DNA of 64,000 nucleotides. Source: Candidatus Latescibacterota bacterium. Its GTDB lineage: Bacteria; Latescibacterota; UBA2968. Numbering within the stretch: position 1 is the stretch's first letter; each line of letters starts with the position of its first letter. The position numbers and the translations under genes are program-made. Positions 34,078-60,599 of this stretch are shown piece after piece. The notes beneath the pieces are model-generated. The model was given only the letters and a program-made list of their open reading frames with translations. It searched no databases and had not been told where the DNA came from. Where the stretch lies: positions 5,600,001-5,664,000 of the forward strand of contig OZ244960.1 in the NCBI GenBank assembly GCA_965222605.1, written 5' to 3'.

Positions 34078-34166
34078 CGAAATTCTGAGTATATTCCCGA
34101 TGAGAAAGAATTTTTGTATTTGTTAAAGGCGATTATTGCGATCTAACAAAACAAAGGAGTGAGGTT

Positions 34167-34753: not shown

Positions 34754-37378
34754 ATGGCGACACACACAACACCAGCGATGGAGCAATACGCGCGTTTTAA
34801 GGAGCAGCATCCGGATGCGATTTTGCTATTTCGGATGGGCGATTTTTACGAGATGTTTTACGATGATGCCGTTGTTGCATCTCAGCTTTTGGGTTTGACA
34901 TTGACATCGCGCAACAATGGGCGTGCAGATCGCATCCCACTGGCAGGTGTTCCGTATCACGCGCTGGATACCTATCTCGCAAGACTCATCAGAGCCGGAA
35001 AAAAGGTGGCGATTTGCGAGCAGATGGAGCCGCCGCAAAAGGGCAAAAAAGTGGTGCGCCGAGAGGTGGTGCAGGTTGTATCGCCGGGAACGGTAATGTC
35101 CGATGATTTGCTCGATCAGAAGCGCAATAATTACCTCGTGGGCATTTTTGTTTCTGACGATCAATTGGGCATGGCAACAGCGGATTTATCAACGGGAATG
35201 TTCCGGGCATCGGAACGCGCGGCTGATGATTTATGGGAGATATTGGAGCGCGTGGCTCCCGCAGAGGTGCTGGCACCTGAGTCGTGGGCCAAAGACAACG
35301 AAGCCGAGTTTGAAGCGCGGATGCCGGATGCATTGCTCACGCATATAGAAGATTGGCATTTTGGACAGCATTATGCGTACGATGCGCTAAAGGAACATTT
35401 CAAGGTGGCGTCTCTCAAGGGCTTCGGATGCGATGATCTCACCGTTGGGATATGCGCCGCGGGTGGGGTGCTGTGTTATTTGCGCGAAAATCAGAAGGGA
35501 GCCGTATCCCACATTACGCGATTGGCGCGCGAACACACCGGGTCAGTTATGGAACTGGATCTGGTGACACAGCGCAATTTGGAACTGGTTACTACTATTC
35601 AAGAGGGACGGCGCGAGGGCACGCTATTTGGGGTTTTAGATCAGACGTGTACGCCTCAGGGCGCGCGAACGCTGCGTACATGGTTATCACAGCCACTTGT
35701 GGATGTCCGCCGCATTGAAGCGCGCTTAGATGCAGTGCAAGCATTTGTCGAATCCGCGTCGCATCGGGATGAGGCGCGCGAAGCCCTGCGCCGCGTTGGA
35801 GACCTGGAGCGGTTGATGTCCCGAATTTGTTGCAATCGGGCAAATCCGCGCGAGCTTGTGGCTCTTCGGCGGTCTTTAGAAGCGGTTGTTCCCCTCCGAG
35901 AAACCCTGCGTGAATTTCGCGCGGATTTGCTGGCGCGGGCGCGCGATCAGGGTATGCCCGACCTGACAGAGTTGATTGATTTGATCGCTCGCACGCTTGA
36001 AGATGATCCACCCGTTCAGATTAGCGATGGCGGATATATCAGAGCGGGCTATCACAAAGAACTGGATGAATTGCGGGAAATCGCCTCGGGCGGGCGCAAT
36101 TGGGTTGCCAATTTGCAGGCAGATGAACGCGAGAAAACGGGTATCGCGTCGTTGAAGGTGGGGTATAATAAGGCATTTGGATATTATATTGAGGTCACCA
36201 AGGCCAATCAGGATAAGGTGCCCGCGTATTTTGTGCGCAAGCAAACACTGGTCAATGCCGAGCGATATATCACGCCTGAGTTAAAGGATTGGGAGGCGAA
36301 AATTTTGGGCGCTGATGAGCGGGCCAAAGATCTCGAACGCGATTTGTTTGCCGCGTTGCGCGAAGAGGTGGCCGGTTGGGTGGAACCCGTGCAGCGCACG
36401 GCACTATCCGTGGCAACGGTAGATGTGCTGGGTACTTTGGCCGAGGTGGCGTCCTCCAATGATTATGTGCGTCCTCAGGTGGATGATAGCGTGCGTATTG
36501 ATGTGAAAGAAGGCCGACATCCCGCGGTTGAACAGTTGCTTCCGGGCGGTAATTTTGTGCCCAATGATTTGACGACTGATGGCGAAAACGATCAAATTCT
36601 GCTGATTACCGGTCCAAATATGTCGGGGAAATCGACGATTTTGCGCCAGACCGGGTTGATTGTGCTTTTGGCACAGGTCGGCAGTTTTGTACCGGCGCGC
36701 GAAGCGCGTATTGGGATGGTGGATCGCATTTTTACACGGGTGGGTGCATCCGATAATCTGGCGCGGGGCGAGAGTACGTTTTTGGTGGAGATGAATGAGG
36801 CGGCGAATATTTTGAATAATGCGACGCCGAAAAGTCTGGTGCTTTTGGACGAAATTGGACGCGGGACGAGTACGTTTGACGGGCTGAGCATTGCGTGGGC
36901 AATGACGGAGTATTTGCACAATGCCGAACAGATTCAGCCGCGGACGTTGTTTGCGACGCATTATCACGAGTTGACAGAATTGGAGGATTTGCTGCCGCGG
37001 GTGGTGAATTACAGCGTTGCCGTGCGCGAGTCGGGCGATACCATCGCGTTTTTGCATAAATTGGTGCCGGGCGGGTGCGATCACAGCTACGGTATTGAGG
37101 TGGCGCGCCTGGCCGGGATGCCAGCAGAGATGATTGCGCGTGCAAAGGAGATTTTGACTCGACTGGAGCAAAACGATCTGTCGGTGGGATCAAAACCCCA
37201 ACCCGATCGCGTGAAGGAGAACGGGCAGATGCCTCTGTTTGCGCCAGCAGCAGAAGTAAAGGTTGAAACGAAAGATCACCCGATGCTGTCTGAGTTGCGC
37301 GATTTAGACATCGCCCATCTCACGCCGGTTGAGGCGCTGGTAAAATTGGATGCGTGGAAGCGGGCGTTGGAAGAATGA
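34754..37378 (+). CDS. mutS: DNA mismatch repair protein MutS
   Basis: GDFYEMF, TGPNMSGKST, DEIGRGTST, ATHYHEL, SYGIEVA. Confidence 0.98.
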   Translation: MATHTTPAMEQYARFKEQHPDAILLFRMGDFYEMFYDDAVVASQLLGLTLTSRNNGRADRIPLAGVPYHALDTYLARLIRAGKKVAICEQMEPPQKGKKVVRREVVQVVSPGTVMSDDLLDQKRNNYLVGIFVSDDQLGMATADLSTGMFRASERAADDLWEILERVAPAEVLAPESWAKDNEAEFEARMPDALLTHIEDWHFGQHYAYDALKEHFKVASLKGFGCDDLTVGICAAGGVLCYLRENQKGAVSHITRLAREHTGSVMELDLVTQRNLELVTTIQEGRREGTLFGVLDQTCTPQGARTLRTWLSQPLVDVRRIEARLDAVQAFVESASHRDEAREALRRVGDLERLMSRICCNRANPRELVALRRSLEAVVPLRETLREFRADLLARARDQGMPDLTELIDLIARTLEDDPPVQISDGGYIRAGYHKELDELREIASGGRNWVANLQADEREKTGIASLKVGYNKAFGYYIEVTKANQDKVPAYFVRKQTLVNAERYITPELKDWEAKILGADERAKDLERDLFAALREEVAGWVEPVQRTALSVATVDVLGTLAEVASSNDYVRPQVDDSVRIDVKEGRHPAVEQLLPGGNFVPNDLTTDGENDQILLITGPNMSGKSTILRQTGLIVLLAQVGSFVPAREARIGMVDRIFTRVGASDNLARGESTFLVEMNEAANILNNATPKSLVLLDEIGRGTSTFDGLSIAWAMTEYLHNAEQIQPRTLFATHYHELTELEDLLPRVVNYSVAVRESGDTIAFLHKLVPGGCDHSYGIEVARLAGMPAEMIARAKEILTRLEQNDLSVGSKPQPDRVKENGQMPLFAPAAEVKVETKDHPMLSELRDLDIAHLTPVEALVKLDAWKRALEE
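37314..37370 (+). repeat. mutS 3'-end direct repeat, copy 1 (partner 41929-41985)
   Basis: 53/57 identical by manual alignment; weaker similarity extends back to ~37286. Confidence 0.9.
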
Positions 37379-37394
37379 TTTGGAGATAGATGAA

Positions 37395-37763
37395 ATGGTA
37401 ACCGTTGATTTGCGGAAGGAAGCAAGACAGATTCTCGATGGGCTTTCCGATGAGAGTTTGGAGGTGGTAGTCAAGTTGCTGAGTTCTCTCAAAGATCGAG
37501 AGTGTCCCAAACGGACTGATCTGTTGTCAATCTATCCGTGGGTGCGTTACCTATCCGATGCGGAATGCAACGAATTTTTCGAGGAACTCTCAAATGCCGC
37601 AAAGGACAATGGTACAGGTGTTGATGAAGTGGTCAACGCCTGGCGGGAGACAGCAGAAATTCTCGCCGCCCCTGACACAATGGCCGACATTGCCGAATCA
37701 GAAAAACAACTCGCAAATGGTGAGGGGGTTTCTTGGGACAGGGTGAAGCAAAACGCAATATAG
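37395..37763 (+). CDS. hypothetical protein, antitoxin-like
   Basis: SD GGAG; PWVRYLS..E..EF, AWRETAEILA, GEGVSW typical of Phd/YefM-like C-termini. Confidence 0.55.
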   Translation: MVTVDLRKEARQILDGLSDESLEVVVKLLSSLKDRECPKRTDLLSIYPWVRYLSDAECNEFFEELSNAAKDNGTGVDEVVNAWRETAEILAAPDTMADIAESEKQLANGEGVSWDRVKQNAI

Positions 37764-37804
37764 GCTTTTTTGACCATCTTTTAGTATTGTGATTCGAGAA
37801 ATAA

Positions 37805-40800
37805 ATGGCAGAGCATCAGGAAGAAAAACAAGTCCTAACAGCAGATCCCAAGCGTCAAGCAAATGACGCGCTAAGGGGATACGTCTATCAAATCTGGCAC
37901 AGTGTGCATGCTTGGATCAGCCTTGATGAAGATGAAATCCTCTATCTGGAAGGAGCGGAAGACTTTGACCAGGTATCAGATGACACTGCTACGGCAGTGC
38001 AAGTCAAAGACACGCAACACAAGATTACGCTCAGATCTCAGGAAGTGAATGACGCGATTAGTCACTATTGGGATTTGCAAGCCAATCATCCTGATCTGAG
38101 TGTGAAATTTCGTTTTCTCACCCGATCTAAGATTGGTGCGGAACGAGGTAATCCATTTGGAAAAGGACAGATGGGTCTTCATGTATGGAGCCATTGTTCG
38201 AGTGATGAAGCAGCTATCACAAAAATCTCCAAATTTTTACAAAATGAAGGGAAAATATCAAAGGAAGTAGATGATTTTCTGAAAAATTCGACACCTCAAG
38301 AAATTTATGAACGTCTCATTGAACCTATTTCTTGGGAGACAGATAGTAAAGAAGCCAGTTTTGTTGAGAAATCCATAAGTGATAAACTGATTCTTCATGG
38401 TCATCAATACGGAATCCCACCATCTGCTGCCAGCAAAGTTGTTGATCATCTTATCAAAGAAGCCTTGCTGGTCGCAACACAAAAGGAAAAACGCGAGCTT
38501 ACCCTAGTGCGTTTTCTCGAAATTTTTGAGGAGAAAACAACTCAAAGGGTTCCAATTCAGCATTTACAGGCACTACAAATGCAGACCACAATGGCGGATT
38601 CCTTTAGAGCATTATCCATGGGGGGTTCGTCTGATATTACTATTCAATCTCAGTCTCGCATACTAACGACTATCCCACCCCTTTATCCCGATGTTACTCC
38701 AAGAAAAGATTTGCTCACAAGCATCCAGGCTCAACTCCAATCAGAGGGTATAGCTGTAATCCAGGGAGGATCGGGAAGAGGGAAGACCACACTCGCAAAC
38801 TTGACCGCAAGTGCTCTAAGCGGTTCATGGTTTTGGTTGAATTTCCCTAATAGTGATTCATCACAGAATGTCCAACTTTTACAGCAACTTGCTATTGCAG
38901 TAAGTAATCAATCCTCACCGGTCAACATCGTCCTTGATGACCTGAACTTACAACCTCAAGAGTTGCGGCAGTATGAAGAAATTTTGGGTGTCATCGTTTA
39001 TAGGGTAAGGGAACGTGGTGCAAAATTGTTGATCACAAGCCAAAATAAGCTACCCAATAATCTCATCCGTCGCCTCGGTATACCACAGTCTGTATCCATC
39101 CATGTTCCTGACTTTACCATATCCGAAATTGAGCAATTTGCACAACAATTGGGATGCCCCCCTGATCGCGCAAATCCTTCGGCAAAATTGATTCAATTCC
39201 ATACCGGAGGGCATCCGAGACTGGTACACGCTCGACTCGATCAATTAAGAGAGACAGACTGGCAGCAATATAAAAACGAAAGTATCTTGCAAACACCTCC
39301 AGAAGTGATAGAAGAGCGTGAAGAAGCGCGACAATTGCTTATAGACTTGCCAGAAGATCAGCGAGAATTTCTCTATAGGCTTAGTTTGCTATCTACCGCA
39401 TTTAGGAAAGATTATGCACACAACATTGGCGAGATACCAGAATCCATACCCTATCCAGGTGATGTTTTTAGCCAACTGGTCGGTCCTTGGATAGATCCAG
39501 TAAATGAAACATACTACACAATCTCCCCTTTGTTGGATAACGCGGCCAAGCAGGTTTGGTCGGAAAGCAAGATAAATGACCTCCACACCCAGATTGCAAA
39601 TGCAGTCCTCAAAGCAACGGATCTAACCACAATAGAAGCGCGGGCTGTTCTCGTACATAGTATGCAAGGACAGAACCAAAAAGGTCTTACTGCTATTCTT
39701 CAGGCATTGCTTGCCACGCCAGAGAGCAAGTGGTACCAACTTAGCCAAGAATTCTCATGGTTGATACACGTCAAAATCGACCCCTCTAAAAAATTATTTA
39801 TTGGGGACGCCTTTATAAATCATCTATTTCGGTCATTGCAATATCGCATTGCGGTTGAGGTGGAACCTGAGTTTGCGCCGAAGATACTTGAAATTTGGGA
39901 TAAAGAAATCCAGCCATACGAGCCGCATAAGTCATATCTGCTGTGTCGCCTAACGCTGGCGACACAGGCATTGGTGTATTGTCAAGTGCCACTATCAGTA
40001 AAACAGATGGTAGGCTATCTCAAAGAAATTATTGATATAAAAGACTATGATAAAGAGGTACAAGAAATATATGGTAACTTTGAGGGACAATTAGAAGAAC
40101 CTGGAACTGATAAAGCCAATTTTTTGAGCACCTTATTTAGCTTTATCTTGGCGCGCCCTCCTATCTATGCTCCAGACCTCAGCGACCTTATTGATGCACT
40201 GGATGAGATTCAACCTAACCATAGGGCTTTATTATTAGCTAATTTCGAGAATGACGGCACTGATTCTCGGATTTTGGTTGATGGTATCTGGGTGGGGGAA
40301 TCAGGCCTTAAGCAGCCCAATTGGACAAGATGCCTTCAAGTATATGACAAACTAATTGAAAGAACCATCGATTGGGGCTATCCTCATATTGCTGCGACAG
40401 TTGCAAGACGTAAAGCCATCATCCATAATGAATACTTGCACGACCCGGATACTGCCTATAAAGTTCTTCAAGATATGGAAACAACAGTGGGGATATCATC
40501 AGTAATAGAAGAAGGACGGGCTGCAGTCTATTTTTATCATAACCATTACAAAGAAGCACTCAATATTTACGAGCGTATTCTCTCGGAATGGGACCCATCT
40601 TCAAAAAAGTTAGGCTTGTTACCTTCAAATTGGTGTCGTCAAGCTGCTATCTGTGCTGCTCATTTGGGTAATTGGGAAAAAGCGGCTACCTTCTTTGAAG
40701 ATGGGGCAAAAAGAGCTAAAGAGAATTATGGCACTGAACAATATATTGGTTTATATGCAGATGCGGGATTCGCGCAGTTTAAGGCAGGCAATGTCCGGGA

Positions 40801-41881
40801 TAGTCTGAATTTGTTGAGTGTGGCACTACAAGAATTTGATATGCTTCCTCAAGATGATACAGATGTTGGATATTTTACATTAAAAAAACTTTTAGGATAT
40901 TCAATAACCTGGTTGGCACAACAAAATAAAAAGAATAAAATCAAATCAGAAGAACCTCCACCAGGCTTCTGCAGTGATCCTGCCAGGTCTGACGAAATTA
41001 TGAACTACCCAAATTTTCCTATACAATATGCGTGGCTTCATTTAGCTCAAGTAGAGTATCAATTCAATTTAGGAATGACAATTTTTGAGCAGGCATTACA
41101 GGTTATAGACCAAAATGTATATCCAGTATTAAGATCGTCCCTTGTTTTCCTCAAAGCACAGCAGGACTTTAGAAACAAGACCTTTGATGAACTTCCACAA
41201 CGTATGTGTCAATTAGCGGATGCATATGTCTCAGCACAGAAGCATGAACAAAGTGGAAAAGGAATAGAAGAAAAGGGAGTTTATGTTGTATCTACCGCTG
41301 AGTTATCCAATTTCGCCTCTGTCGAGAACATCATTGATATGCTGGTAGCAGCCCTTCTTGTTCAACTGTCAACAAATAGAGATACGAATGAGATTTTGTC
41401 TATATGGCATGCGAACTCGTCAGAGTTACCTGTACAAAAAAATATGACTATTGCTCTTGATCTGATTGAATCAATGTTATTTGGAGAAGAGAAGAATGCT
41501 CTGGCAGTAATGAGAACAAAAGAAGCCAAAAAAGAAGATCGAATTATAGCATCATTAAAAATAATTCATAATACGAAAATAGATCCACAACATCTTTTTT
41601 CTGCTCACACACTTATTACGACTTCTCTCATTGATCAAAGCTGGGGCGAGTATATTGTGACAGATTTAGCAGAACTCCTTTCGAAACAATGGCTAAAAAA
41701 AATAGAATTTCAAGCAATCTTAAATATGCCTATGATTACAGTGCCTCAGATAGAGCAAGCCTGCAACAGTAGTGAGGCTGGAAAGAAAAAAATCGGTCAA
41801 ATTTTACTCGCGGCACATCAAGCTGTCTCAGTCCAATTATCTCCTGATATTTTACAGCAGTTTCGCAGTTGGGTAGAATGA
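37805..41881 (+). CDS. Avs/NLR-like defence protein: Cap4/DUF4297-type nuclease + STAND NTPase + TPR sensor
   Basis: ALRGYVYQ...EGAEDFD...AVQVK, Walker A GGSGRGKTT, Walker B IVLDD, GGHP, helical TPR-like C-terminus; AT-rich. Confidence 0.8.
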   Translation: MAEHQEEKQVLTADPKRQANDALRGYVYQIWHSVHAWISLDEDEILYLEGAEDFDQVSDDTATAVQVKDTQHKITLRSQEVNDAISHYWDLQANHPDLSVKFRFLTRSKIGAERGNPFGKGQMGLHVWSHCSSDEAAITKISKFLQNEGKISKEVDDFLKNSTPQEIYERLIEPISWETDSKEASFVEKSISDKLILHGHQYGIPPSAASKVVDHLIKEALLVATQKEKRELTLVRFLEIFEEKTTQRVPIQHLQALQMQTTMADSFRALSMGGSSDITIQSQSRILTTIPPLYPDVTPRKDLLTSIQAQLQSEGIAVIQGGSGRGKTTLANLTASALSGSWFWLNFPNSDSSQNVQLLQQLAIAVSNQSSPVNIVLDDLNLQPQELRQYEEILGVIVYRVRERGAKLLITSQNKLPNNLIRRLGIPQSVSIHVPDFTISEIEQFAQQLGCPPDRANPSAKLIQFHTGGHPRLVHARLDQLRETDWQQYKNESILQTPPEVIEEREEARQLLIDLPEDQREFLYRLSLLSTAFRKDYAHNIGEIPESIPYPGDVFSQLVGPWIDPVNETYYTISPLLDNAAKQVWSESKINDLHTQIANAVLKATDLTTIEARAVLVHSMQGQNQKGLTAILQALLATPESKWYQLSQEFSWLIHVKIDPSKKLFIGDAFINHLFRSLQYRIAVEVEPEFAPKILEIWDKEIQPYEPHKSYLLCRLTLATQALVYCQVPLSVKQMVGYLKEIIDIKDYDKEVQEIYGNFEGQLEEPGTDKANFLSTLFSFILARPPIYAPDLSDLIDALDEIQPNHRALLLANFENDGTDSRILVDGIWVGESGLKQPNWTRCLQVYDKLIERTIDWGYPHIAATVARRKAIIHNEYLHDPDTAYKVLQDMETTVGISSVIEEGRAAVYFYHNHYKEALNIYERILSEWDPSSKKLGLLPSNWCRQAAICAAHLGNWEKAATFFEDGAKRAKENYGTEQYIGLYADAGFAQFKAGNVRDSLNLLSVALQEFDMLPQDDTDVGYFTLKKLLGYSITWLAQQNKKNKIKSEEPPPGFCSDPARSDEIMNYPNFPIQYAWLHLAQVEYQFNLGMTIFEQALQVIDQNVYPVLRSSLVFLKAQQDFRNKTFDELPQRMCQLADAYVSAQKHEQSGKGIEEKGVYVVSTAELSNFASVENIIDMLVAALLVQLSTNRDTNEILSIWHANSSELPVQKNMTIALDLIESMLFGEEKNALAVMRTKEAKKEDRIIASLKIIHNTKIDPQHLFSAHTLITTSLIDQSWGEYIVTDLAELLSKQWLKKIEFQAILNMPMITVPQIEQACNSSEAGKKKIGQILLAAHQAVSVQLSPDILQQFRSWVE

Positions 41882-41900
41882 ATATCCTGTTATTAAATCG

Positions 41901-41990
41901 GCTGTCTGAATCAGATGATTTAGACTAACCCATCTCACGCCAGTTGAAGCGCTGGTAAAATTAGATGCGTGGAAGCAGGCGTTGGCATAG
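41901..41990 (+). repeat. mutS 3'-end direct repeat, copy 2 (displaced former mutS terminus with own TAG)
   Basis: Encodes HLTPVEALVKLDAWKQALA* versus mutS HLTPVEALVKLDAWKRALEE*. Confidence 0.9.
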
Positions 41991-42037
41991 GACTCTTAAC
42001 ATGGCTCTTGAAACGGTGTGAGAATGGAGGAAAAATT

Positions 42038-42940
42038 ATGGAAGAGATAGCTTTGCCAAAGTTGCGCGTGAGTAGAAAAGAAGCAAATAATAAAATAAAA
42101 GCGCAAATTGAGAAAGGGGAATTGCTCTGTAACCGGCAGATATGTTCAGAAGAAGAATTGGAGAATGTAGGTATAGCAGCCAACCATTGGTCAAGATACA
42201 ACAGAGATCTCTTAATAAAGCTATTTGATAACTTATCGATAGACGATGAATACAAAAATTTCCATTACTATAGATTGAGTCATCAAGATATAGCGAACCT
42301 GATGTTGGATGGGGTTCCCATACCAGATTTTCAAGATCAAGTAAGTGAATACCAAAGAGATATGACAGATAGCATCAATAGTCTAAAGGGAATCTGTTAC
42401 CGACTTGAATTATTCGATGAAGTATTAGACAATGTCCCTTACACCTTGGCCAATAAAGGGTTTTCAGACAATCCCACTCGCACCTTCGGTGACCATGTCT
42501 TCATCGTGCATGGACATGACGAGGCCGCCAAACATGCCATCGCTAGATTCGTGGAGAAGTTTAACTTAAAGGCTACCATACTTGATGAGCAAGCAAGTAA
42601 AGGCCAAACGGTTATTGATAAGTTTGAAGAAAATGCAGACAATGTGGGGTTTGCAATCGTCTTACTGACGCCTGACGATGTTGGCGCACCAAAAGATCAA
42701 ATAGATGAACCTAAACCTCGAGCACGTCAGAACGTTATATTAGAACTCGGCTATTTTTTGTGTGGATTAGGGCGTGAGCGTGTATGTGTTCTTTACAAAA
42801 AAGGAGTTGAACTACCTTCAGATATTCAGGGTATAGTCTATGTACCCATGAATAATCCCAATGAATGGCAACTGAAATTAGCTACAGAAATGAAGCAGGC
42901 AGGATTACCGATTGATCTGAACAAACTTATAGAGGCATAA
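42038..42940 (+). CDS. TIR-like nucleotide-binding domain protein (Cap12/Pycsar-type TIR)
   Basis: VFIVHGHD, FAIVLLTPDD, RARQNVILELG, ELPSD; SD GGAGG. Confidence 0.88.
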   Translation: MEEIALPKLRVSRKEANNKIKAQIEKGELLCNRQICSEEELENVGIAANHWSRYNRDLLIKLFDNLSIDDEYKNFHYYRLSHQDIANLMLDGVPIPDFQDQVSEYQRDMTDSINSLKGICYRLELFDEVLDNVPYTLANKGFSDNPTRTFGDHVFIVHGHDEAAKHAIARFVEKFNLKATILDEQASKGQTVIDKFEENADNVGFAIVLLTPDDVGAPKDQIDEPKPRARQNVILELGYFLCGLGRERVCVLYKKGVELPSDIQGIVYVPMNNPNEWQLKLATEMKQAGLPIDLNKLIEA

Positions 42941-42971
42941 AAAAAGGCCGATGTATATCGGCCTTTTTTTT
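42939..42971. terminator. bidirectional intrinsic terminator at the centre of the hotspot
   Basis: A7-GGCCGAT-gtat-ATCGGCC-T8. Confidence 0.9.
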
Positions 42972-42973
42972 CA

Positions 42974-43165
42974 CTATTCATTGCTGATCCCGTGTTCCTC
43001 GAGCCAGGCTTTGAGGGGCGCATCTTCGGGAGTGGGGGAGGTGTAGCCGCAACCGCCGGAATAGCTGACGCCGAGGAGTTGTTTTTGTATGGGCGTGCAG
43101 CGGTCGAGATAGTGTTCTACCTGCATGTCGTCGCGGGGGCGAAGCCAGCGGTAGGAGTAGCCGTA
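42974..43165 (-). repeat. 192-bp copy of the 3' end of the phytanoyl-CoA dioxygenase gene (partner 45823-46014)
   Basis: 63 codons + TAG in frame, 14 substitutions by manual alignment, 11 synonymous. Confidence 0.95.
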
Positions 43166-43180
43166 TCATGTACGCCAGGC

Positions 43181-43403
43181 TTATGGTATTGTCAATGTGA
43201 TGTCATAGTCGTTTAGAGCGTTCCAAAAATCGGCGTGTTGAGTCAATGGCCTGACTGCCAGCGTATCCAATTTATCGAACGCCCGATCAAAAATGGCGCA
43301 GCACCAATGTCCCGTAAATCGTGAGTGATACAGAAATCCACGGAATCCGAAACGTGCGAATCTGTGCTTCAATACGCCCTATGAGGTTGACATAGCTGGC
43401 CAT
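43181..43403 (-). pseudogene. RES-domain toxin remnant (large internal deletion)
   Basis: ATG at the antitoxin stop gives MASYVNLIGRIEAQIRTFRIP, joined out of frame to GFLYHSRFTGHWCCAIFDRA (RES C-terminal Y.SR motif). Confidence 0.7.
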
Positions 43404-43846
43404 CATCCAAAGTCACCCTGGAGGTATCCTTTGGCGGCAGCCTTAACACGGGCGACTTCTCCTTTGTGAAGAAGGGCAAGCGGTTCCGCTCCATCAAGCG
43501 CGTCGTTTGGTGCTGTAAGCCAATACCACATTTCATAGGCGTCATCGAATAGCTTGGTAATACGATCAAGCCTTTTGATAGGCTGTCCATGTTTGTCGAA
43601 TTGTCCAGCAGGAAAAACATACTCGTGCTTGGCATTTTCCCATCCGACTATATGTCCTTTCTTCAGCCAGTCGTGAACAACCTGGTGGTGATTGAGACCA
43701 GCGAGGGCGACAAGTTGAGAGGAAGTTAGCAGGTCTTCCATCTCTTCCATCTCTTGGGTATTTGCCTCGATCAATGCGTTCGCCTGTTGCTCGTCAATTA
43801 GACATGGTTTGGCACCCTCAATAGTTTCTATATTTTGCGTATTCAT
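43403..43846 (-). CDS. Xre/MbcA/ParS-type antitoxin
   Basis: YVFPAGQF, WYWLTAPNDALDGAEPLALL, A..YLQGDF; upstream TTGACA-16-TATATT. Confidence 0.8.
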   Translation of the reverse strand: MNTQNIETIEGAKPCLIDEQQANALIEANTQEMEEMEDLLTSSQLVALAGLNHHQVVHDWLKKGHIVGWENAKHEYVFPAGQFDKHGQPIKRLDRITKLFDDAYEMWYWLTAPNDALDGAEPLALLHKGEVARVKAAAKGYLQGDFG

Positions 43847-44142
43847 TTTCGATTCTCCGGTCATTGTGTGCTTATTCCACAACTTCCCGGCACATGGGAA
43901 ATATAGCCCCTTTTGGATGTCTGTCAACGCTTGACGCGCAGCATGGGCTGATTCACTTTTCGCCTTCGGGTGACAAAAATGACGACACCATATGCGCCGA
44001 GATGCACGATAATATCTACTTTGCACATTATGAATACGAAACAAGATGACAGGGATGTATGAGGCGACCCGTCAACGTCTTTTTGAGCCTTTTTTCACGA
44101 CAAAGGACGCCGACCGCGAAATCGTGTCTTTATTTTCACCTC

Positions 44143-45699
44143 TCACGCAGACATGATCTCAAAGGTCGTTATATTGCGGGTATCCTTGCTGAACTCTACG
44201 GCGATCAGGTGGATCGGCTGATCCAGACTCCGATATTTGTCCGCATAGCCTTTCTGTCTCAGTTGCGCCATCGCAGTCCCTTCCGGTGCCAATTCCACCA
44301 CCTTAAACTCGAACAGATACACATTACCGTTGAAACGAATTGCCATGTCCAGACGCCCCTGGCTGCTGCTGTCCTCTACAACGATGTCCAATCCCACCGA
44401 TGCGAAGTAGGAGTAGAAAACGCTGGCGTAGTAGCCTTCGTAGTTCGCTATGTCGTTGTTCGTGTGCCACTGGTAGGGAATGCTGGCGAAGAATGCTTTG
44501 AATAGACCCTCCAGACTCGCAAAATCATTGACCAGAAGCAGGTCATACAGACGGGCGCGGTGCTCCGCGCGCTGTGATGGGTCGCCAGTCAGATGATTCA
44601 ACAAGCTCCTATTCAGGCTCTGGCGCACTTCTCGATTCGGATAGGATAGCCGATAGTACATCTCTCCACCGCGCGGTTCGGTATGGTGGATGGTTAGATA
44701 CCCGGTCTGGAACAGCAGGGCTTCGGTGGCGATGTGGTCAACATCAAAAGCCGACAGCAAATCATCACTGCCCAGCATGTTGTCCAGAGCCAGCGCACCG
44801 ACCCCGCGCGATAGTAGCGTCTCGATCAGAAATGTCGGCGTACCTGTCTCGAACCAGTAGGCTTCGAAGCTGTGCCTTCTGAACAGCAAGAGGATGTCGA
44901 AGGGGTTATAGACCTTCTCCTGTCCCCGCCAGCTATAGCCGTTGTACCAGTGCCTTATCTCGTCCCTATCCAGACCCGGCAGTTCTGGCGCAAATACCGT
45001 GTCGAGGTCCTCCTCGGTGTAGCCGCAGATGGCGGAATATTGTGGGTCAATGGTGATGTCGGTGAGGTTGTTGAGGCCAGAGAAAAGATGCACCTTGGAG
45101 AACTTACTGACACCAGTGAGGAATGCGAACTTAATATGAGCATCGCTATCCTTGATGGTCGCGTATAGACCGCGCAGAAAGTCGCGGTTGGCGCACGCGG
45201 TCTCCGGTACTTCCAGAGCATCCAGAATCGGCTTATCGTATTCATCCACAAGCACGACAACACGCTGCTCGCCCTGCCGATGCAATACCCGGATCAGATC
45301 GCCAAAGCACTCCGGTGCAGTATCGTAACGCGGCGCAATCCCGGCTTCTTCTGCTATCGTGAGCAGTTGCGTCATCACATTCGTATGCAGATAGGACGCT
45401 TCTTTGAAATTGCCGCTACCAAAGCTCAAGCGCACAACGGGATAGCGAACCTGCCAGTCCCAGTGGTCGTGGATATGAAGCCCTTCGAACAGCGGTTCAT
45501 TGCCCTCAAACAGTTCCTTCAACGTGTCCAGAAACAGGCTTTTGCCAAAGCGACGTGGACGCGATAAAAAATAGTGCGAGCCCTCGTCCATCAGTCGCCG
45601 CATGTGGGCAGTTTTATCGACATAGTAGCAGTTTTCCTCCCGAATTTTTCGGAAGGTCTGAATGCCAATAGGCAACTTGCGTCTGTCTGATATGCCCAT
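44143..45699 (-). CDS. AAA-ATPase-like domain + PD-(D/E)XK nuclease protein
   Basis: LPIGIQTF, SRPRRFGKS, VDEYDKP, TGVSKF, GRLDM...FEFK. Confidence 0.92.
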   Translation of the reverse strand: MGISDRRKLPIGIQTFRKIREENCYYVDKTAHMRRLMDEGSHYFLSRPRRFGKSLFLDTLKELFEGNEPLFEGLHIHDHWDWQVRYPVVRLSFGSGNFKEASYLHTNVMTQLLTIAEEAGIAPRYDTAPECFGDLIRVLHRQGEQRVVVLVDEYDKPILDALEVPETACANRDFLRGLYATIKDSDAHIKFAFLTGVSKFSKVHLFSGLNNLTDITIDPQYSAICGYTEEDLDTVFAPELPGLDRDEIRHWYNGYSWRGQEKVYNPFDILLLFRRHSFEAYWFETGTPTFLIETLLSRGVGALALDNMLGSDDLLSAFDVDHIATEALLFQTGYLTIHHTEPRGGEMYYRLSYPNREVRQSLNRSLLNHLTGDPSQRAEHRARLYDLLLVNDFASLEGLFKAFFASIPYQWHTNNDIANYEGYYASVFYSYFASVGLDIVVEDSSSQGRLDMAIRFNGNVYLFEFKVVELAPEGTAMAQLRQKGYADKYRSLDQPIHLIAVEFSKDTRNITTFEIMSA

Positions 45700-45822
45700 C
45701 TCTCATCTCCAGATTTTGATGCCAGTACGGTCGCCCTGCTCGATACAGTATTATACCGATTTCGCTATCTATTTGGAAGTCAAAACTTTTCATTATGGAT
45801 TTTGTTGCATGTCTAATACTGA

Positions 45823-46668
45823 CTATTCACTACTGATCCCGTGTTCTTCGAGCCAGGCTTTGAGGGGCGCATCTTTGGGAGTGGGGGAGGTGTAGCCGCG
45901 GCCGCCAGAGTAGCTGACGCCGAGGAGTTGTTTTTGGATGGGCGTGCAGCGGTCGAGGTAGTGTTCAACTTGCATGTCGTCGCGGGGGCGAAGCCAGCGA
46001 TAAGAGTAGCCGTAGAAGAGGACGCGGCGCGGTTCCTTCCAGTAGTTGGTACTGGCCGAGTGCCATATTCGGCGGTCAAAAAATACGGCTGATCCAGGTG
46101 GCACGAGCACTGGGGTAGCATCTTTGTGCGGCGCGTTGCGATCTTCTCCTGGAAATGTGTTTTGCGTTTGGCTTTTGGGAAGGACGTAGAAATTGCCGCG
46201 GCCCTGTTCAGTCGTATCGGTGAGAAAAAAGCCGATTTTGAGGGAGATCCTGGGACGCGGGTTCATGTCAAAATCTTGATTGATGCGGCCGCTGTCCTGG
46301 TGAAAGCCGAGGCCAGGTCCGTCTTTTTCGAATGTTTTGTGCGGTTCTGCAGGGGGTGTTACGGTCATGTGGGTATGGTAGAGTTGGATGTGCCAGCCCA
46401 GGATGCCCCACACTTTGGGAAATGTTTTGTACCAGTCGAGCAAGGGCAAGAAGCGGTCGTCCTTGCCAATGAAGTCGTAGTGGTTGATGCGCGCTGTGGC
46501 ACTTTTGTCCATCCGAGCGCGTTCTTCTTTATCTACGCGATCCACTGCAACGACAAGATCGCGGACCATGTCGGGTGGCAGGGCGTCTGGAACGATGAAA
46601 TAGCCATCCCGTTTGAATTTGCGCGCTTCTTCTTCTGTTAGACAATAATCGAGACATTTGGGGTGCAT
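45823..46668 (-). CDS. phytanoyl-CoA dioxygenase family (2OG-Fe(II)) protein
   Basis: FKRDGYF, FHQD (HxD), IWHS distal His, PRR. Confidence 0.88.
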   Translation of the reverse strand: MHPKCLDYCLTEEEARKFKRDGYFIVPDALPPDMVRDLVVAVDRVDKEERARMDKSATARINHYDFIGKDDRFLPLLDWYKTFPKVWGILGWHIQLYHTHMTVTPPAEPHKTFEKDGPGLGFHQDSGRINQDFDMNPRPRISLKIGFFLTDTTEQGRGNFYVLPKSQTQNTFPGEDRNAPHKDATPVLVPPGSAVFFDRRIWHSASTNYWKEPRRVLFYGYSYRWLRPRDDMQVEHYLDRCTPIQKQLLGVSYSGGRGYTSPTPKDAPLKAWLEEHGISSE

Positions 46669-46707: not shown

Positions 46708-47169
46708 TCACGCGTTGGTTTTATAGCGTCGCGTCAGTACATACCGATCTTCTGTGGCGCGATAATAACCCCGCACAAAGTGTCGTTCACAAAATCCCCA
46801 TTTTTCGTACAGGGAAATAGCATTTTCATTTTCGGGATCTACTGTCAAAAAACAATCCACACCGATTTGATCGCACGCGGCCAAAATTGCATCGAACAAA
46901 GCGGAACCTATGCCTTTGCCGCGAAAGGGATGATCCACAAATACTTTGTGCAAACAATATAGCCTGTCTGTTGCCGTGGGAAATGCCAGCACAGCACCGA
47001 TCAGTTTCTCGCGCTCCCATGCACAAAATACCAGCGCGTGCTCTGTCCACAATCGCCAGACGTGTTCTCCATCGGGTATATACTCAGAATTTCGGTTTTG
47101 TGCCCATGCTTCGCGATCTAATTTTGCGATCTCCAAAAAATCGCGCGTTTTAGCACGTTGGATATACAT
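46708..47169 (-). CDS. GNAT family N-acetyltransferase
   Basis: VDHPFRGKGIG, NAISLYEKWGF. Confidence 0.88.
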   Translation of the reverse strand: MYIQRAKTRDFLEIAKLDREAWAQNRNSEYIPDGEHVWRLWTEHALVFCAWEREKLIGAVLAFPTATDRLYCLHKVFVDHPFRGKGIGSALFDAILAACDQIGVDCFLTVDPENENAISLYEKWGFCERHFVRGYYRATEDRYVLTRRYKTNA

Positions 47170-57181: not shown

Positions 57182-58219
57182 TTAATCAATCAAAGGCAAC
57201 CGAACGGTTCCGCCTCGCTCTGTTGATCGGTGAACCGCTTCGGTAAATTCCATATATTTCATGCCTTCGTAAAAGCTGGTATCGCCCTGAGGCCCACCTT
57301 TGATGGCATTGATAAAGTCGGCTTCCACTGTCCATTCGGCGGCTTCATCTTCGGGGATGGGAATTTCTTGCAGGCGCCGATCGCCTGTTTTTGCACCGAG
57401 GATTTGCGTTCCCATGTCGTAGATCAATGTGCCTTCGTTGCCATAAGCTTCAACGACGGAGCTTCCGCCAAATTGGGCGACACCCGAAAACAGAAATGCC
57501 GCACGCGCGCCATTTTCCATTTTGCCTATGACATGCGCCATATCAGGTGTTTCAACTGGTCCATCGCCAGACCCATCGGGTAGAGATCGCTCTCTGGTAA
57601 AAATCTCAGTTTCAGCCGTTATGGTTGACATATAGCCAAATACGCGCGCGACGCGCTCGACGGTAATGCCCATTCCCAGGATATTCAGGCCCGAATATCG
57701 TCTGACCTGTCGCCAGTGTAACGGTTCGTCAACATCCCAATATTGCCCGCCCAGATCGCGGACATAAACGTGGAAAATATCGCCCAAATATCCTTCATCT
57801 ATGAGCCGCCGCAAAAAACGTCCGCCCTTCCACGGGGGTGCCGGACAAATTTGGGTCACGAGATTTGATTCTCGACTTCTGGCATACATCAGTCGGGCTT
57901 CTCGCAAGTTCATCGCCATGCGCGCCTGTACAAAGGTGTGTTTGCCCGCGTCTAAGGATGCGAGGACAAATTCACAGTGTTTGTAAGGCCATGTGCCGAT
58001 CATTACCGCGTCGATATCGTCCCGGTCCAACAATGCCTGTGAGTCTGTCATGGCCTCGGCTGATAGGCCCTGTTCGGCTATTACCTTTTCACCGCTTTCT
58101 ATACTGCGGTTGCATATTGCCACGACTTCGGCATCGTCAATTTTTGCCAATCCCGGAAAATGCCTACTCCGAAAAATACCGCCTGCACCAATAATACCAA
58201 TGCGAATTTTATCTGCCAT
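57182..58219 (-). CDS. Gfo/Idh/MocA family oxidoreductase
   Basis: IGIIGAG, IDAVMIGTWPYKH, AGKH. Confidence 0.9.
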   Translation of the reverse strand: MADKIRIGIIGAGGIFRSRHFPGLAKIDDAEVVAICNRSIESGEKVIAEQGLSAEAMTDSQALLDRDDIDAVMIGTWPYKHCEFVLASLDAGKHTFVQARMAMNLREARLMYARSRESNLVTQICPAPPWKGGRFLRRLIDEGYLGDIFHVYVRDLGGQYWDVDEPLHWRQVRRYSGLNILGMGITVERVARVFGYMSTITAETEIFTRERSLPDGSGDGPVETPDMAHVIGKMENGARAAFLFSGVAQFGGSSVVEAYGNEGTLIYDMGTQILGAKTGDRRLQEIPIPEDEAAEWTVEADFINAIKGGPQGDTSFYEGMKYMEFTEAVHRSTERGGTVRLPLID

Positions 58220-58352
58220 TTTTTACCTCACTATGTTGTCGTTGTTCTTCTCTCCAATGTTCAGGGGTTGCAGAAACTGCAACGCAAAAGCGAATGTATC
58301 ACAGTTTTTGTCAATTGGCAAACGAATCGGTCACGGATGCGTCTGCCACCCC

Positions 58353-59552
58353 TCATACAAATAGACTCTGCGAATAACGGTATGCGATGCAGCTGGTTCC
58401 CCACTCTTTATGAGCCACATCCATGAGCGTATATGCTGTGGTCACAATGGTACCATCCTCAAAACATACGGTGCTGGGATACCCGCAGTCCGAATGGTAG
58501 GCCGTATCGCTGATGATGTATTCGCGATTTATATCAAAGGTGTTTCCTCCATCGTGACTCACTACAGCGCGAACCCCGAAGGGATATGCGCGATATCCGT
58601 ATGTAATGAGCACTTTTCCATTTGGCAGAGCCACAATGCTGCCGGGTGAAGCCCCTTGAGTCTGCGCTTCGGGGATGGTCTTTTCCCAATGGGTCCAGGT
58701 TTTTCCTCCGTCAAAAGAGTAGGCAAATTGATTTGGTTGGTCGTTGAATCTGACATAAGCGAGCCAGTGCTTTTCATCCAGAGATAGAAATCCCGTTTCG
58801 CTTCCACCGGATTTCACAAGGGTTGATTTCTTCCAGGTCTTGCCGTTGTCAAATGACCAGTACAAATAGCTCATCCGCTCTGGCAATTCGGGATTCTCGT
58901 CATATGCCTCTTTCGTGTAGTATCCCCGTGCGCTGAACACAAGAGCCCCGTTTGAGACCTGTCGCATCTGCCCATGGGGGTGCAGCCGGAGATCTTTTTC
59001 GGGAAACGCCAGAGACACCGGCTCTGACCATGTTTTTCCTTCATCCTCTGAGCGAATCACTTCGATTGATTTAAAGGGATCCCGTGTTGAGATACGCCCT
59101 TTCACGTCAATTTCGCCCATGACGCCATAGGCAAGCACCAGGTGCCCGTTCTTTGCCTGTCCAAGCGCCGGGTTTCGCAAATCTAAATTTCGTTCGGGAT
59201 CTCCCCGCACAACCGTCTGATAATCCGTCCAGGTCCTGCCTTTATCCGATGAAAAGGAAAGACTGATTTCACCTCCACTACCGGCATGACACGAACCGGT
59301 TCTCGATGCGCAGCATAGCTTTCCGTCCGCCATCAACAAAAGTACGGGAAAAAATCCGCCCCCTCTGGCAAAAGGTTCTGGAAAGGTGCGCACACTCCCA
59401 TAGTCTTTTCTCAAGGGATCGTCTTTGCATTCGGGGAACCGCAGGAAATGTTCATCGGATGTCCTCCCTTCACGCAATGTTGGCCAACGCGTGCCCGTAG
59501 CAATCACGGGGACCTCTTCTATATGATCGACCAAAGAGACGACTTCAAACAT
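58353..59552 (-). CDS. BNR/Asp-box (sialidase-like) beta-propeller protein
   Basis: Five Asp-boxes SSDKGRTW, SEDEGKTW, SFDNGKTW, SFDGGKTW, SHDGGNTF; DCGYPS. Confidence 0.85.
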   Translation of the reverse strand: MFEVVSLVDHIEEVPVIATGTRWPTLREGRTSDEHFLRFPECKDDPLRKDYGSVRTFPEPFARGGGFFPVLLLMADGKLCCASRTGSCHAGSGGEISLSFSSDKGRTWTDYQTVVRGDPERNLDLRNPALGQAKNGHLVLAYGVMGEIDVKGRISTRDPFKSIEVIRSEDEGKTWSEPVSLAFPEKDLRLHPHGQMRQVSNGALVFSARGYYTKEAYDENPELPERMSYLYWSFDNGKTWKKSTLVKSGGSETGFLSLDEKHWLAYVRFNDQPNQFAYSFDGGKTWTHWEKTIPEAQTQGASPGSIVALPNGKVLITYGYRAYPFGVRAVVSHDGGNTFDINREYIISDTAYHSDCGYPSTVCFEDGTIVTTAYTLMDVAHKEWGTSCIAYRYSQSLFV

Positions 59553-60546
59553 CGTCTTTCTCCTGAGCCTGGTTCGGTTCCCTTTCCCATGGCGCACGCA
59601 ACGTCGGCCTCTCAGTCAGGAATTCCAGCCCCGCGCGCAGCGACCCATTCGCGTTGAACCACGCGTGGAAGCCCTGCCCATCAATGCCGTTGCCGTCATA
59701 GCGGTCGCGACGGGTAGAACTCGCCTTGCCTTCCCGCATGCCCCAGCCCATCCAGCCGTGGCCCGATTCTTCCATCATCTGGATGGTCCAGCGGGCACAA
59801 TCTGCGCGCTTTGCATCGTCAAGGCAGCCTGGAATGGTCTCGTTGGAGAGCATTGGCTTTTTATGACGCTGCTGAACGGCGGCACATACTGCCAACATCT
59901 CGCGCTGTTGCTCGGGCGTGCGCCCGTAGGGGTGACAGCACAGCACATCGCAGAGCGGCGCGAGTCGGTCCATTTGCTCCTCGATTTGCAGTACGCCAAT
60001 GGTGATTGGCTGCTGCGCTCCGCACGCGCGCACTGTCTCGGCCACCCGCGCCAGCCACTCGATTTCTTTGGCGTTGGAATCGGCATCCAGACGCGGGTAT
60101 TGAGGTTCATTGCAGAGGTCCCAGACGAGGACGCGCTCGTCATTGGCAAGAGGCGCGACCAGATCGCGAACATAGGCCAGCTTTGGGCTCCAATTCCTGT
60201 GCAGATCTTCAATATAGGTCCCGCCGTAGTCGTAGGTGTGGTTGTGCCACCGGTTGAACAGGCATGGCATGGTCCGCATGCCAAGTTCATCGATGGCCGC
60301 CACAGCATCCATGAACGACGCGTGGACAGCGTCCGGGTCTGCCATCCATGCTGTGAACTCGATCCACAGACGGATGCAATTGGCGTGCGTCTGGTTTGCA
60401 AGCGCGGCCTCTTCGCGGAATCGGTCCGGGCAATAGTCCCACCAGGCCTGCTCAATGCGGGCGCCCCAGGAGGGTATGATGTTGAATCCGCGGAGCCAGG
60501 CGTAGTCCTGGTAGTGATGGAGCCTCACATTTGCTGGTTCTGCCAT
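59545..60546 (-). CDS. glycoside hydrolase clan GH-A (GH5-like)
   Basis: RGFN, NCIRLW, WDLCNEP acid/base, HPY, NET nucleophile region. Confidence 0.8.
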   Translation of the reverse strand: MAEPANVRLHHYQDYAWLRGFNIIPSWGARIEQAWWDYCPDRFREEAALANQTHANCIRLWIEFTAWMADPDAVHASFMDAVAAIDELGMRTMPCLFNRWHNHTYDYGGTYIEDLHRNWSPKLAYVRDLVAPLANDERVLVWDLCNEPQYPRLDADSNAKEIEWLARVAETVRACGAQQPITIGVLQIEEQMDRLAPLCDVLCCHPYGRTPEQQREMLAVCAAVQQRHKKPMLSNETIPGCLDDAKRADCARWTIQMMEESGHGWMGWGMREGKASSTRRDRYDGNGIDGQGFHAWFNANGSLRAGLEFLTERPTLRAPWEREPNQAQEKDDV

Positions 60547-60599
60547 TGCTTCCATCCTTTTGGTGTCATGTCGAACTGGTGATTAGGCCACAAATCCAT

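Follow-up and report, generated by a model that had tools for sequence, protein, structure and literature searches.

Many genomic hotspots of defense genes lack mobility genes, and how such hotspots gain their genes is an open question. A case that bears on it is a 64,000-nucleotide stretch of a Candidatus Latescibacterota genome (contig OZ244960.1, positions 5,600,001 to 5,664,000; hereafter the window), in which mutS and the gene of a PhyH-family dioxygenase are convergent, with 8.4 kb of cargo in between. Defense and toxin-antitoxin genes have apparently piled up singly between the two genes, without a dedicated integrase. The initial annotation of the window proposed that incoming cassettes replace the 3' ends of the flanking genes and that these gene tails serve as attachment sites. 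Our analysis partly supports this proposal, as growth by end replacement and the absence of integrases hold, while dedicated attachment sites do not. The best explanation is that the locus is a recombination hotspot between convergent core genes in an uncultured Latescibacterota genus, with cassettes added singly. On balance, the underlying process is probably a single-crossover homologous "insertion-duplication" of foreign DNA carrying the end of a core gene, in which only the events that preserve the gene survive.

Both flanking genes possess a second in-frame copy of their own C-terminal coding end, complete with a stop codon, on the far side of the cargo (Table 1). The dioxygenase copies form a direct repeat of 193 nt (42973-43165 versus 45822-46014; 93% identity) that covers the last 63 codons and the stop. 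The mutS repeat consists of 57 nt at 93% identity (37314-37370 versus 41929-41985), extended by 25 nt at 76% (37285-37309 versus 41901-41925) with a 1-nt indel. Repeats this long and this similar are far from anything expected by chance, and independent genomes show the layout as well. From the mutS side, the attached gene end (end A) is followed by a small antitoxin-like open reading frame (ORF), an Avs-like gene, the orphan mutS end (end B), a TIR gene, and a bidirectional terminator; from the dioxygenase side, end A is followed by an ATPase-nuclease gene, an Xre-type antitoxin gene, a possible RES remnant, and the orphan dioxygenase end B. Every testable element of this order had been called correctly from the letters of the window, the RES remnant being a weak match.

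The differences between the copies bear on the origin of the orphan ends. In the window, the two dioxygenase ends differ by 11 synonymous and 3 nonsynonymous changes, in agreement with the earlier claim that the differences are mostly synonymous and that both copies evolved as working gene ends. The 11 orphan dioxygenase tails that were set against the resident end in their own genome (a 38-nt tail piece of locus L018 was excluded) show 92 synonymous (Sd) and 45 nonsynonymous (Nd) differences, with synonymous (pS) and nonsynonymous (pN) proportions of 0.226 and 0.032 and a pN/pS ratio of 0.14. Resident dioxygenase ends compared between species give nearly the same picture (pS, 0.208; pN, 0.026; ratio, 0.12). 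Divergence and constraint between orphan and resident ends thus equal those of orthologs, which shows that the two ends were functional genes of separate lineages while they diverged and came together only afterwards. This working-ortholog pattern speaks against an internal duplication and also against an ancient, merely decaying array. A frameshift or an internal stop is present in 4 of the 11 orphan copies, as expected after displacement. The orphan mutS end holds a 1-nt indel and a TAA in its 5' part and aligns at 81-90% with the ends of mutS in 14 relatives; near the stop, it matches the mutS end that is attached to a TIR cassette in L024.

The same locus was fetched from 17 genomes of the genus, the records of which are titled metagenome-assembled genomes (MAGs) of Candidatus Latescibacterota. 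Both genes were found within 20 kb in 14 of them, which together with the window gives 15 loci from 15 species. L025, L026, and L027 were left out of this set (dioxygenase 81-83% identical, no mutS in the fetched 20 kb), and the locus was not fetched from G006 and G012, where the gene lies at a contig edge, or from G010, which has no close ortholog. The MutS protein is 91-96% identical in the 14 relatives; the dioxygenase is 93-97% identical in 16 other genomes of the genus and 81-83% in three more. Two of the 15 loci, L016 and L023, are empty and measure 59 and 53 nt from stop to stop, a span made up of stop, hairpin terminator, and stop. Orphan tails are present in nine loci, one to three per locus and on one or both sides, and another four (L014, L020, L022, and L024) are occupied with no detectable tail copy. 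The dioxygenase tail is present in 12 copies in eight loci (L013 has three, and L018 and L021 have two each), and mutS-tail copies occur in five loci. The dioxygenase end B of the window and the adjoining terminator align over the full length of the empty sites in L016 and L023 at 87.5-89%, which identifies end B as the displaced original gene end, with the cargo sitting between it and the gene; the hairpin terminator is the ancestral intergenic core. In L016 and L023, the first ~19 nt downstream of the mutS stop coincide with the beginning of the DUF6247-type cassette, its ATG included, so these empty sites may have arisen by deletion from an occupied site instead of being pristine.

Cassettes attached to a resident gene in one species stand behind orphan ends in another. 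The ATPase-nuclease cassette, present at this hotspot in 4 of the 15 species, is located behind the attached end A in L022 and behind the orphan tail B1 in L013 and L018. Similarly, the TIR gene directly follows the genuine mutS (end A) in L024 and is found behind orphan mutS ends in the window and in L015 (B1). The Avs-like cassette and the mutS tail after it are also present in L028, at 84% identity. Junctions between a cargo end and a truncated tail are common to species with different downstream content; these are L018 B1 with L028 B1, two short sequences judged by eye (no count) to be near-identical over the first ~37 nt and divergent after, and L029 B1 with L015 B1. A 60-nt stretch that precedes the mutS tail copies of L029 and L015 was considered as a repeat element and dropped, since neither the rest of the genome nor any of the other loci contains it. 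The MutS C-terminus itself varies with the adjoining cassette, ending in ALEE next to the DUF6247-type cassette and in the empty sites, in ALIQESQHGS next to an MNT/HEPN cassette, and in ALAEDS next to the TIR cassette, which indicates that incoming DNA replaces the end of the host gene. Empty sites, up to three stacked tails, the attached and orphan occurrences of the same cassettes, and these MutS termini together bear out the view that end-replacing insertions push older cargo outward, and the suggested comparison of the locus across genomes also revealed cargo that differs from species to species. The cargo in other species includes toxin-antitoxin pairs, restriction-modification systems, ankyrin proteins, insertion sequence (IS) elements, and metabolic genes. 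The earlier label of defense-type cargo therefore fits the defense and toxin-antitoxin genes but not the remaining classes. Large ankyrin-repeat proteins (592-829 aa) are encoded in the hotspot cargo of L018, L021, and L029; eukaryote-like ankyrin proteins are typical of sponge symbionts.

A history without any transfer, in which an old array or internal end duplications in the ancestor of the genus were followed by differential loss, appears very improbable in the light of these comparisons. Such a history would accommodate the finding, detailed below, that shared cassettes are more diverged than the flanking genes, and deletions do occur, as seen in the internal deletion of L028 B1 and in the loci without tails. 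Long nonfunctional ends should nevertheless give a pN/pS ratio near 1 and not the low value observed, and both the intact stop-hairpin-stop arrangement of the two empty species and the presence of the same junction ahead of differing downstream content argue against it.

The recurrence of the architecture also bears on the suspicion of an assembly artifact, in which two strain haplotypes of what is possibly a metagenome assembly were wrongly joined. We consider this hardly credible. In its favor, the records of the relatives carry MAG titles, contamination of this genome is estimated at 5.4%, and a minor contig form from the same sample (X22; depth, 10) joins the terminator directly to the dioxygenase end. 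Nevertheless, the same architecture, with other cargo and other boundaries, is present in the assemblies of eight other species, both short-read and single-contig, and this is a stronger argument than the contigs that bridge the locus. When the assembled contigs of four runs were aligned to the locus, independent contigs of two runs (probably from the source sample) bridged 36900-37461, from mutS end A into the cargo, and 40553-42522, from the end of the Avs gene through mutS end B into the TIR gene, with no difference. None of the contig pieces listed crosses 43165/43166, so that junction is without contig confirmation. The cargo genes between the duplicated ends are intact. A chimeric assembly, which the initial annotation named among the findings that would refute its proposal, is thus very unlikely.

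Contigs from another sample show a form that lacks both cargo blocks, with joints that skip 5192 and 2849 nt (X23 and X24), 2849 nt being the exact spacing of the two dioxygenase ends. An unoccupied form therefore circulates, in this organism or in another. The joints in X22 to X24 were rejected as evidence of excision, as they may belong to other species of the genus. Another joint, from 41891 to 37272 (depth, 2; another sample), is explained most simply if a relative has an orphan mutS tail that is closer to end A. The runs in which part of the stretch is found include sponge metagenomes.

The boundaries of the orphan ends vary. The 12 orphan dioxygenase tails start at nine positions (~265, 220, 192, 186, 177, 155, 144, 104, and 58 nt from the stop), unlike the products of a site-specific crossover, which would give one, and no single fixed crossover core common to the insertions was found among them. 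An alignment of all resident and orphan ends shows that their homology extends through the stop codon and ~3 nt beyond, after which each copy has its own cassette. The repeats are 34-265 nt long at this locus and up to 424 nt elsewhere in the genome, and they are gene-like along their full length.

Searches for recombinases gave a consistent result. Pfam models applied to the cargo (37379-45822) identified no integrase or transposase, and no tRNA turned up there, although no tRNA finder was run. Phage_integrase, Resolvase, and Recombinase models matched none of the 94 cargo ORFs (at least 60 aa) of the 12 occupied relatives; ordinary IS transposases are present in the loci of three relatives. 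A tblastn search of the 15 loci with eight tyrosine-recombinase ORFs of the genome returned nothing, including no remnant. In the whole genome there are 10 Phage_integrase hits, ~7 of them in long ORFs, with the nearest PF00589 hit more than 160 kb from the locus, and no Resolvase-family match. A 32-nt tail repeat of the gene at 2738755-2739483 does have a recombinase gene right alongside, so classical integrase islands exist in this genome too. The claimed lack of an integrase or transposase accordingly stands for the cargo of the window and for the relatives' loci, and a cognate integrase with a standard att core probably does not account for the duplicates, given no recombinase in the 15 loci and nine tail boundaries. 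The accompanying statement that no terminal inverted repeat is visible needs a correction, as a 25-nt pair flanks the wider region outside the cargo. The arms of this pair (34078-34102 and 47070-47094; 24 of 25 positions complementary) enclose a 188-aa ORF, mutS, the hotspot, the dioxygenase gene, and the start of a GNAT gene. One arm lies within the GNAT gene (encoding RNSEYIPD) and the other is intergenic, upstream of the 188-aa ORF; they are kept in relatives where the flank is long enough, both arms in 6 of 16 loci and the GNAT arm in 14 of 16.

Duplicated gene ends are not confined to this locus. Crude ORF calling yielded 5240 ORFs in the genome, and every ORF of 450 nt or more had its first and last 150 nt compared with its own 30-kb neighborhood. 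Among same-strand matches of at least 40 nt, we counted 33 tail-only copies downstream and 25 head-only copies upstream versus 15 tail copies upstream and 19 head copies downstream. Under strict filters (minimum length, 50 nt; minimum identity, 85%; maximum distance, 15 kb; no more than 3 genome-wide hits), 14 downstream tails and 11 upstream heads remained versus 4 upstream tails and 4 downstream heads. Gene-preserving layouts dominate, and heads are affected about as much as tails. The examples of tail duplication include gatB (repeat of 53 nt at a distance of 10.1 kb; cargo of type III restriction-modification and PIN genes), a gene for a 281-aa protein (90 nt, 11.3 kb; type I restriction-modification with nested ATPases), a beta-lactamase-family gene (206 nt, 0.7 kb; a BrnT/CopG pair), PPDK (81 nt, 1.9 kb; an AAA_22 protein), glgB (141 nt, 11.7 kb; mixed cargo), and another PhyH gene (424 nt, 4.9 kb; ABC transporters and IS605 OrfB). 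None of the 10 Phage_integrase hits falls inside any of the 33 tail-duplication intervals. The genome-wide self-alignment proposed earlier thus recovered further downstream tails but no strong tail specificity, which is already evident in the unfiltered counts, and the idea that tails are special sites of attachment was rejected. The duplication of heads as often as tails and the variable boundaries point to ordinary homologous recombination and selection for intact genes, not to an att-like site.

Two head-type duplications lie in the window itself, at 58103-58220 and 60371-60561, the 5' ends of the minus-strand genes 57182-58219 and 59545-60555; the copies of these heads are located 20.8 and 13.3 kb away, outside the window, at 88% and 94% identity. 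Elsewhere (L114, G000:C1:6300915-6306006), a second convergent gene pair has crossed tail copies around an AAA_21 (AbiEii-like) ATPase cassette, with the tail copy of the minus-strand gene adjoining the plus-strand gene and vice versa. This crossed layout would be expected if a circle carrying both gene ends had integrated by one crossover.

Insertion-duplication by homologous recombination would account for these patterns as follows. The 3' end of the host gene would exchange with a homologous 3' end that lies beside cargo on DNA from a related lineage, most simply a circularized fragment, through one Campbell-type crossover, or an equivalent unequal exchange, per added cassette. The product would read gene body, chimeric (partly foreign) end, new cargo, illegitimate junction, truncated chimeric old end, older cargo, and terminator. 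Repeated rounds would then build an ordered stack on each side of the common terminator, with the newest cassette adjoining the gene, and recombination from tail to tail could delete cassettes again. Each cassette would need one illegitimate join, made once, after which homology would suffice. Since only anchors that include the gene end keep the gene intact, the duplicates are tails downstream and, elsewhere, heads upstream, and the boundary would vary because the captured fragment began at varying points. A single homologous exchange would in this way explain the travelling junctions, the travelling end variants, the stacking, the loss of cassettes, the involvement of heads, and the lack of integrases. 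The genes recA, comEC, and dprA are present in the genome, which is permissive only; we infer a circular intermediate, dependence on RecA, a route of DNA entry, and the order and timing of the events from the model itself.

Several points weigh against this account. Cassettes common to different species are 83-86% identical, compared with ~91% for the flanking core genes, so no recent transfer has been caught. No circular or excised form was found among the assembled contigs, which cannot show rare molecules. The linkage between tail and cassette that the model predicts was not significant over the last 102 nt of the dioxygenase tail (mean distance, 0.083 within versus 0.087 between classes; permutation p, ~0.08). 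The four occupied loci with no tail copy indicate that insertion without duplication, or later loss of the tail, also happens. The genome-wide scan covers this genome alone and carries crude ORF calls and some paralog noise. In addition, at least five different cassettes begin within ~6 nt of the dioxygenase stop, and two of the L013 tails have nearly the same boundary. These regularities suggest a positional preference or selection, e.g., for cotranscription ahead of the terminator, and the clustering hints at a preference that plain homologous recombination does not explain. Finally, the ~7 long tyrosine-recombinase ORFs elsewhere in the genome could act in trans, and of the eight genomic copies of the ATPase-nuclease gene, four are next to complete or fragmentary genes of tyrosine recombinases.

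The recombinases elsewhere in the genome, their proximity to the ATPase-nuclease copies, the cassette starts near the dioxygenase stop, and the 32-nt repeat with a recombinase alongside (below our 40-nt filter) would all be compatible with decayed integrative elements, namely, cis-mobilizable elements (CIMEs) inserted at the 3' end of mutS or of the dioxygenase gene by a tyrosine recombinase with this specificity that has been lost or acts in trans. We regard this explanation as doubtful. Neither the cargo ORFs of the relatives nor the window cargo encodes a recombinase, not even as a tblastn remnant, and one gene shows nine orphan-tail boundaries between long, gene-like repeats. Some cassettes of 0.5-0.7 kb lie between long repeats and leave no room for an integrase. 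At least 14-33 target gene ends stand against ~7 recombinases, none of which is held by the 33 intervals, and gene heads are duplicated too. In form, CIMEs and tandem accretion are the closest family of known systems, with ICESt1-type elements at fda and the ssrA islands of Dehalococcoides as examples of accretion. Passages of PMC5704250 (see also PMC3146451) describe entry at a gene-end repeat, ordered tandem arrays, and inner units that lack an integrase, as at this locus. There, a site-specific integrase and a fixed core are needed; here, 13 occupied loci possess no integrase gene or remnant, and many genes are affected. Partial target-gene copies without a nearby integrase are, in the sections of PMC3119063 that treat them, read as standard remnants of such elements and usually dismissed.

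The positional clustering could also reflect a dedicated and so far unrecognized enzyme system that inserts cassettes at gene ends, in which case the locus would be a true integrase-free analog of an integron; we think this improbable. A candidate, which we rate no higher, would be the multicopy protein with AAA-ATPase_like and PDDEXK_9 domains, acting in trans to cut or recombine just past the stop and to insert circles that carry a copy of the gene end. Its gene has eight full copies in the genome at 72-78% protein identity (Table 1), one of them inside an ABC-transporter operon. A comparison of their flanks showed that DNA homology ends 0-90 nt from the ORF ends; no element ends emerged from these flanks, as homology stops at the ORF. 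The gene thus behaves like a gene-sized mobile unit, and its recurrence at the hotspot, the clustered insertion of unrelated cassettes within ~6 nt after the dioxygenase stop and 6 nt before the mutS stop, and the frequency of duplications in this genome would suit a role in insertion. Most of the tail-duplication loci examined, on the other hand, lack the ATPase-nuclease gene, inspection of the variable distal junctions by eye, without a motif search, revealed no conserved motif, and heads are duplicated as often as tails. Homologous recombination with one illegitimate join per cassette suffices without such an enzyme.

In logic, the orphan rhs-CT and cdiA-CT modules appear to be the closest parallel. 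For rhs-CT/rhsI and cdiA-CT/cdiI, parts of PMC3967940 describe displaced 3' fragments with linked cargo that stack downstream and keep homology to the main gene, modules that are orphan in one strain and attached in another, and a demonstrated homologous recombination between main gene and orphan. Displaced homologous 3' fragments, orphan in one genome and attached in another, are likewise the feature of this locus. The payload of the rhs and cdi modules, as presented there, is the gene end itself (toxin tip and immunity gene), whereas here the ends are those of conserved housekeeping genes and the payload consists of unrelated genes past the stop. No polymorphic-toxin main gene with a variable tip is present at the locus, where the hosts are mutS, with its five MutS domains, and the PhyH dioxygenase gene. 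Two other regions of the genome (G000:C1:3455952-3474713 and G000:C1:1259189-1277704) contain genes of 5895 and 3822 nt, behind which lie 8 and 7 copies of the respective 3' part (200-800 nt; 73-96% identical); these look like orphan arrays of the polymorphic-toxin type.

Campbell-type insertion-duplication is a laboratory tool and a known source of large merodiploids, and to our knowledge it has not been recognized as a recurrent natural builder of ordered cassette arrays. One homologous exchange yields direct repeats around the new DNA and leaves the gene intact if the segment holds its end, and the inserts at this locus and elsewhere are indeed flanked by direct repeats of arbitrary lengths and ends, at tails and at heads. 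The chemistry proposed for this locus is also that of transformation-triggered duplications (PMC3784515). Narrow keyword searches of the literature, few in number and with supplements excluded, turned up no account of cassettes stacked without an integrase behind housekeeping protein genes. The initial comparison with integrons is apt for the topology, i.e., small one- or two-gene cassettes in order and in one orientation, a fixed entry point, the newest cassette proximal, and frequent toxin-antitoxin genes, but not for the mechanism. There is no IntI here, the repeats are in-frame coding copies of mutS and of the dioxygenase gene in place of attC hairpins or imperfect palindromes, and a common promoter would be hypothetical here.

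The individual parts of the locus are compiled in Table 1. The 1358-aa protein is called Avs-like for its predicted architecture, which we base on weak domain matches: the N-terminus matches LmuA of PADLOC (1.2e-9) and DUF4297 (1.2e-7), the Pfam matches to TPR, AAA_22, and nSTAND3 are weak, with the NTPase matches (AAA_22 and nSTAND3) all below cutoffs, and none of the PADLOC Avs models matched. The DUF6247-like ORF is in an antitoxin position without a toxin partner in the window, and a ~90% homolog precedes ParE in L018, L020, and L021. The two strands of the terminator hairpin have folding energies of -18.1 and -18.6 kcal/mol (z, -7.3 and -5.8), with no shuffle as good; the hairpin was not listed by a consensus terminator scan and is shown by folding instead. 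A strong promoter-like site precedes the Xre gene at 43927-43900 (11 of 12 matches), in a scan that returned 20 sites versus 15.1 ± 3.7 in shuffles. These counts do not decide whether the cargo has promoters of its own, and the initial proposal of promoterless cargo transcribed from the host genes would thus be conjectural.

Table 1. Features of the mutS-dioxygenase locus (window coordinates) and further genomic copies of its ATPase-nuclease gene
Feature	Position	Strand	Evidence or remark
mutS, full length, 874 aa	34754-37378	+	Pfam MutS_I to MutS_V, E 1e-19 to 1e-82
mutS end A (final ~94 nt)	37285-37378	+	
Small DUF6247-like ORF, antitoxin position	37395-37763	+	Pfam DUF6247 E 0.001, below cutoff (weak)
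Avs-like protein, 1358 aa	37805-41881	+	Predicted domains: LmuA/Cap4-like nuclease (N-terminal), P-loop NTPase (weak), TPR (C-terminal, weak)
Orphan mutS 3' end (end B)	41901-41990	+	In frame to stop TAG 41988-41990
TIR-domain protein, single-gene candidate defense, PDC-S35 type	42038-42940	+	Pfam CAP12-PCTIR_TIR 3.4e-40; PADLOC PDC-S35 2.9e-71
Bidirectional intrinsic terminator hairpin with A- and T-tracts	42939-42970	both	Folding
Orphan dioxygenase 3' end (end B), 63 codons + TAG	42973-43165	-	Stop is plus-strand CTA 42974-42976
Possible C-terminal remnant of RES toxin gene	43184-43378	-	Pfam RES E 0.042, 14.3 bits, profile positions 114-144 of 157; below cutoff (weak)
Xre/MbcA/ParS-type antitoxin gene	43403-43864	-	Pfam Xre_MbcA_ParS_C 2e-4, below cutoff
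AAA-ATPase_like + PD-(D/E)XK (PDDEXK_9) protein, 518 aa, single-gene cassette	44143-45699	-	Pfam 5.8e-62 and 1.1e-20
PhyH-family dioxygenase, full length, 281 aa	45823-46668	-	Pfam PhyH 4.5e-13; final 192 nt are end A
Further AAA-ATPase_like/PDDEXK_9 copies	G000:C1 159216, 162128, 1098807, 1927142, 2779192, 4116182, 5466327		

The displaced host-gene end left by each insertion makes the order of events, their boundaries, and the divergence of the donor readable from sequence. The pattern can be searched for in any genome by self-alignment of gene tails and heads, so the generality of the process is directly testable. If a dedicated enzyme were at work after all, which seems a slim prospect, sponge-associated Latescibacterota would possess an integron-like platform that spans the genome and offers dozens of entry points. 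If insertion-duplication by homologous recombination is correct, an orphan gene end that lacks an integrase would not have to be the relic of a prophage or an integrative plasmid, and housekeeping proteins such as MutS would change their C-termini as a by-product. One-sided homology would then be enough to pass defense and toxin-antitoxin genes between related species.

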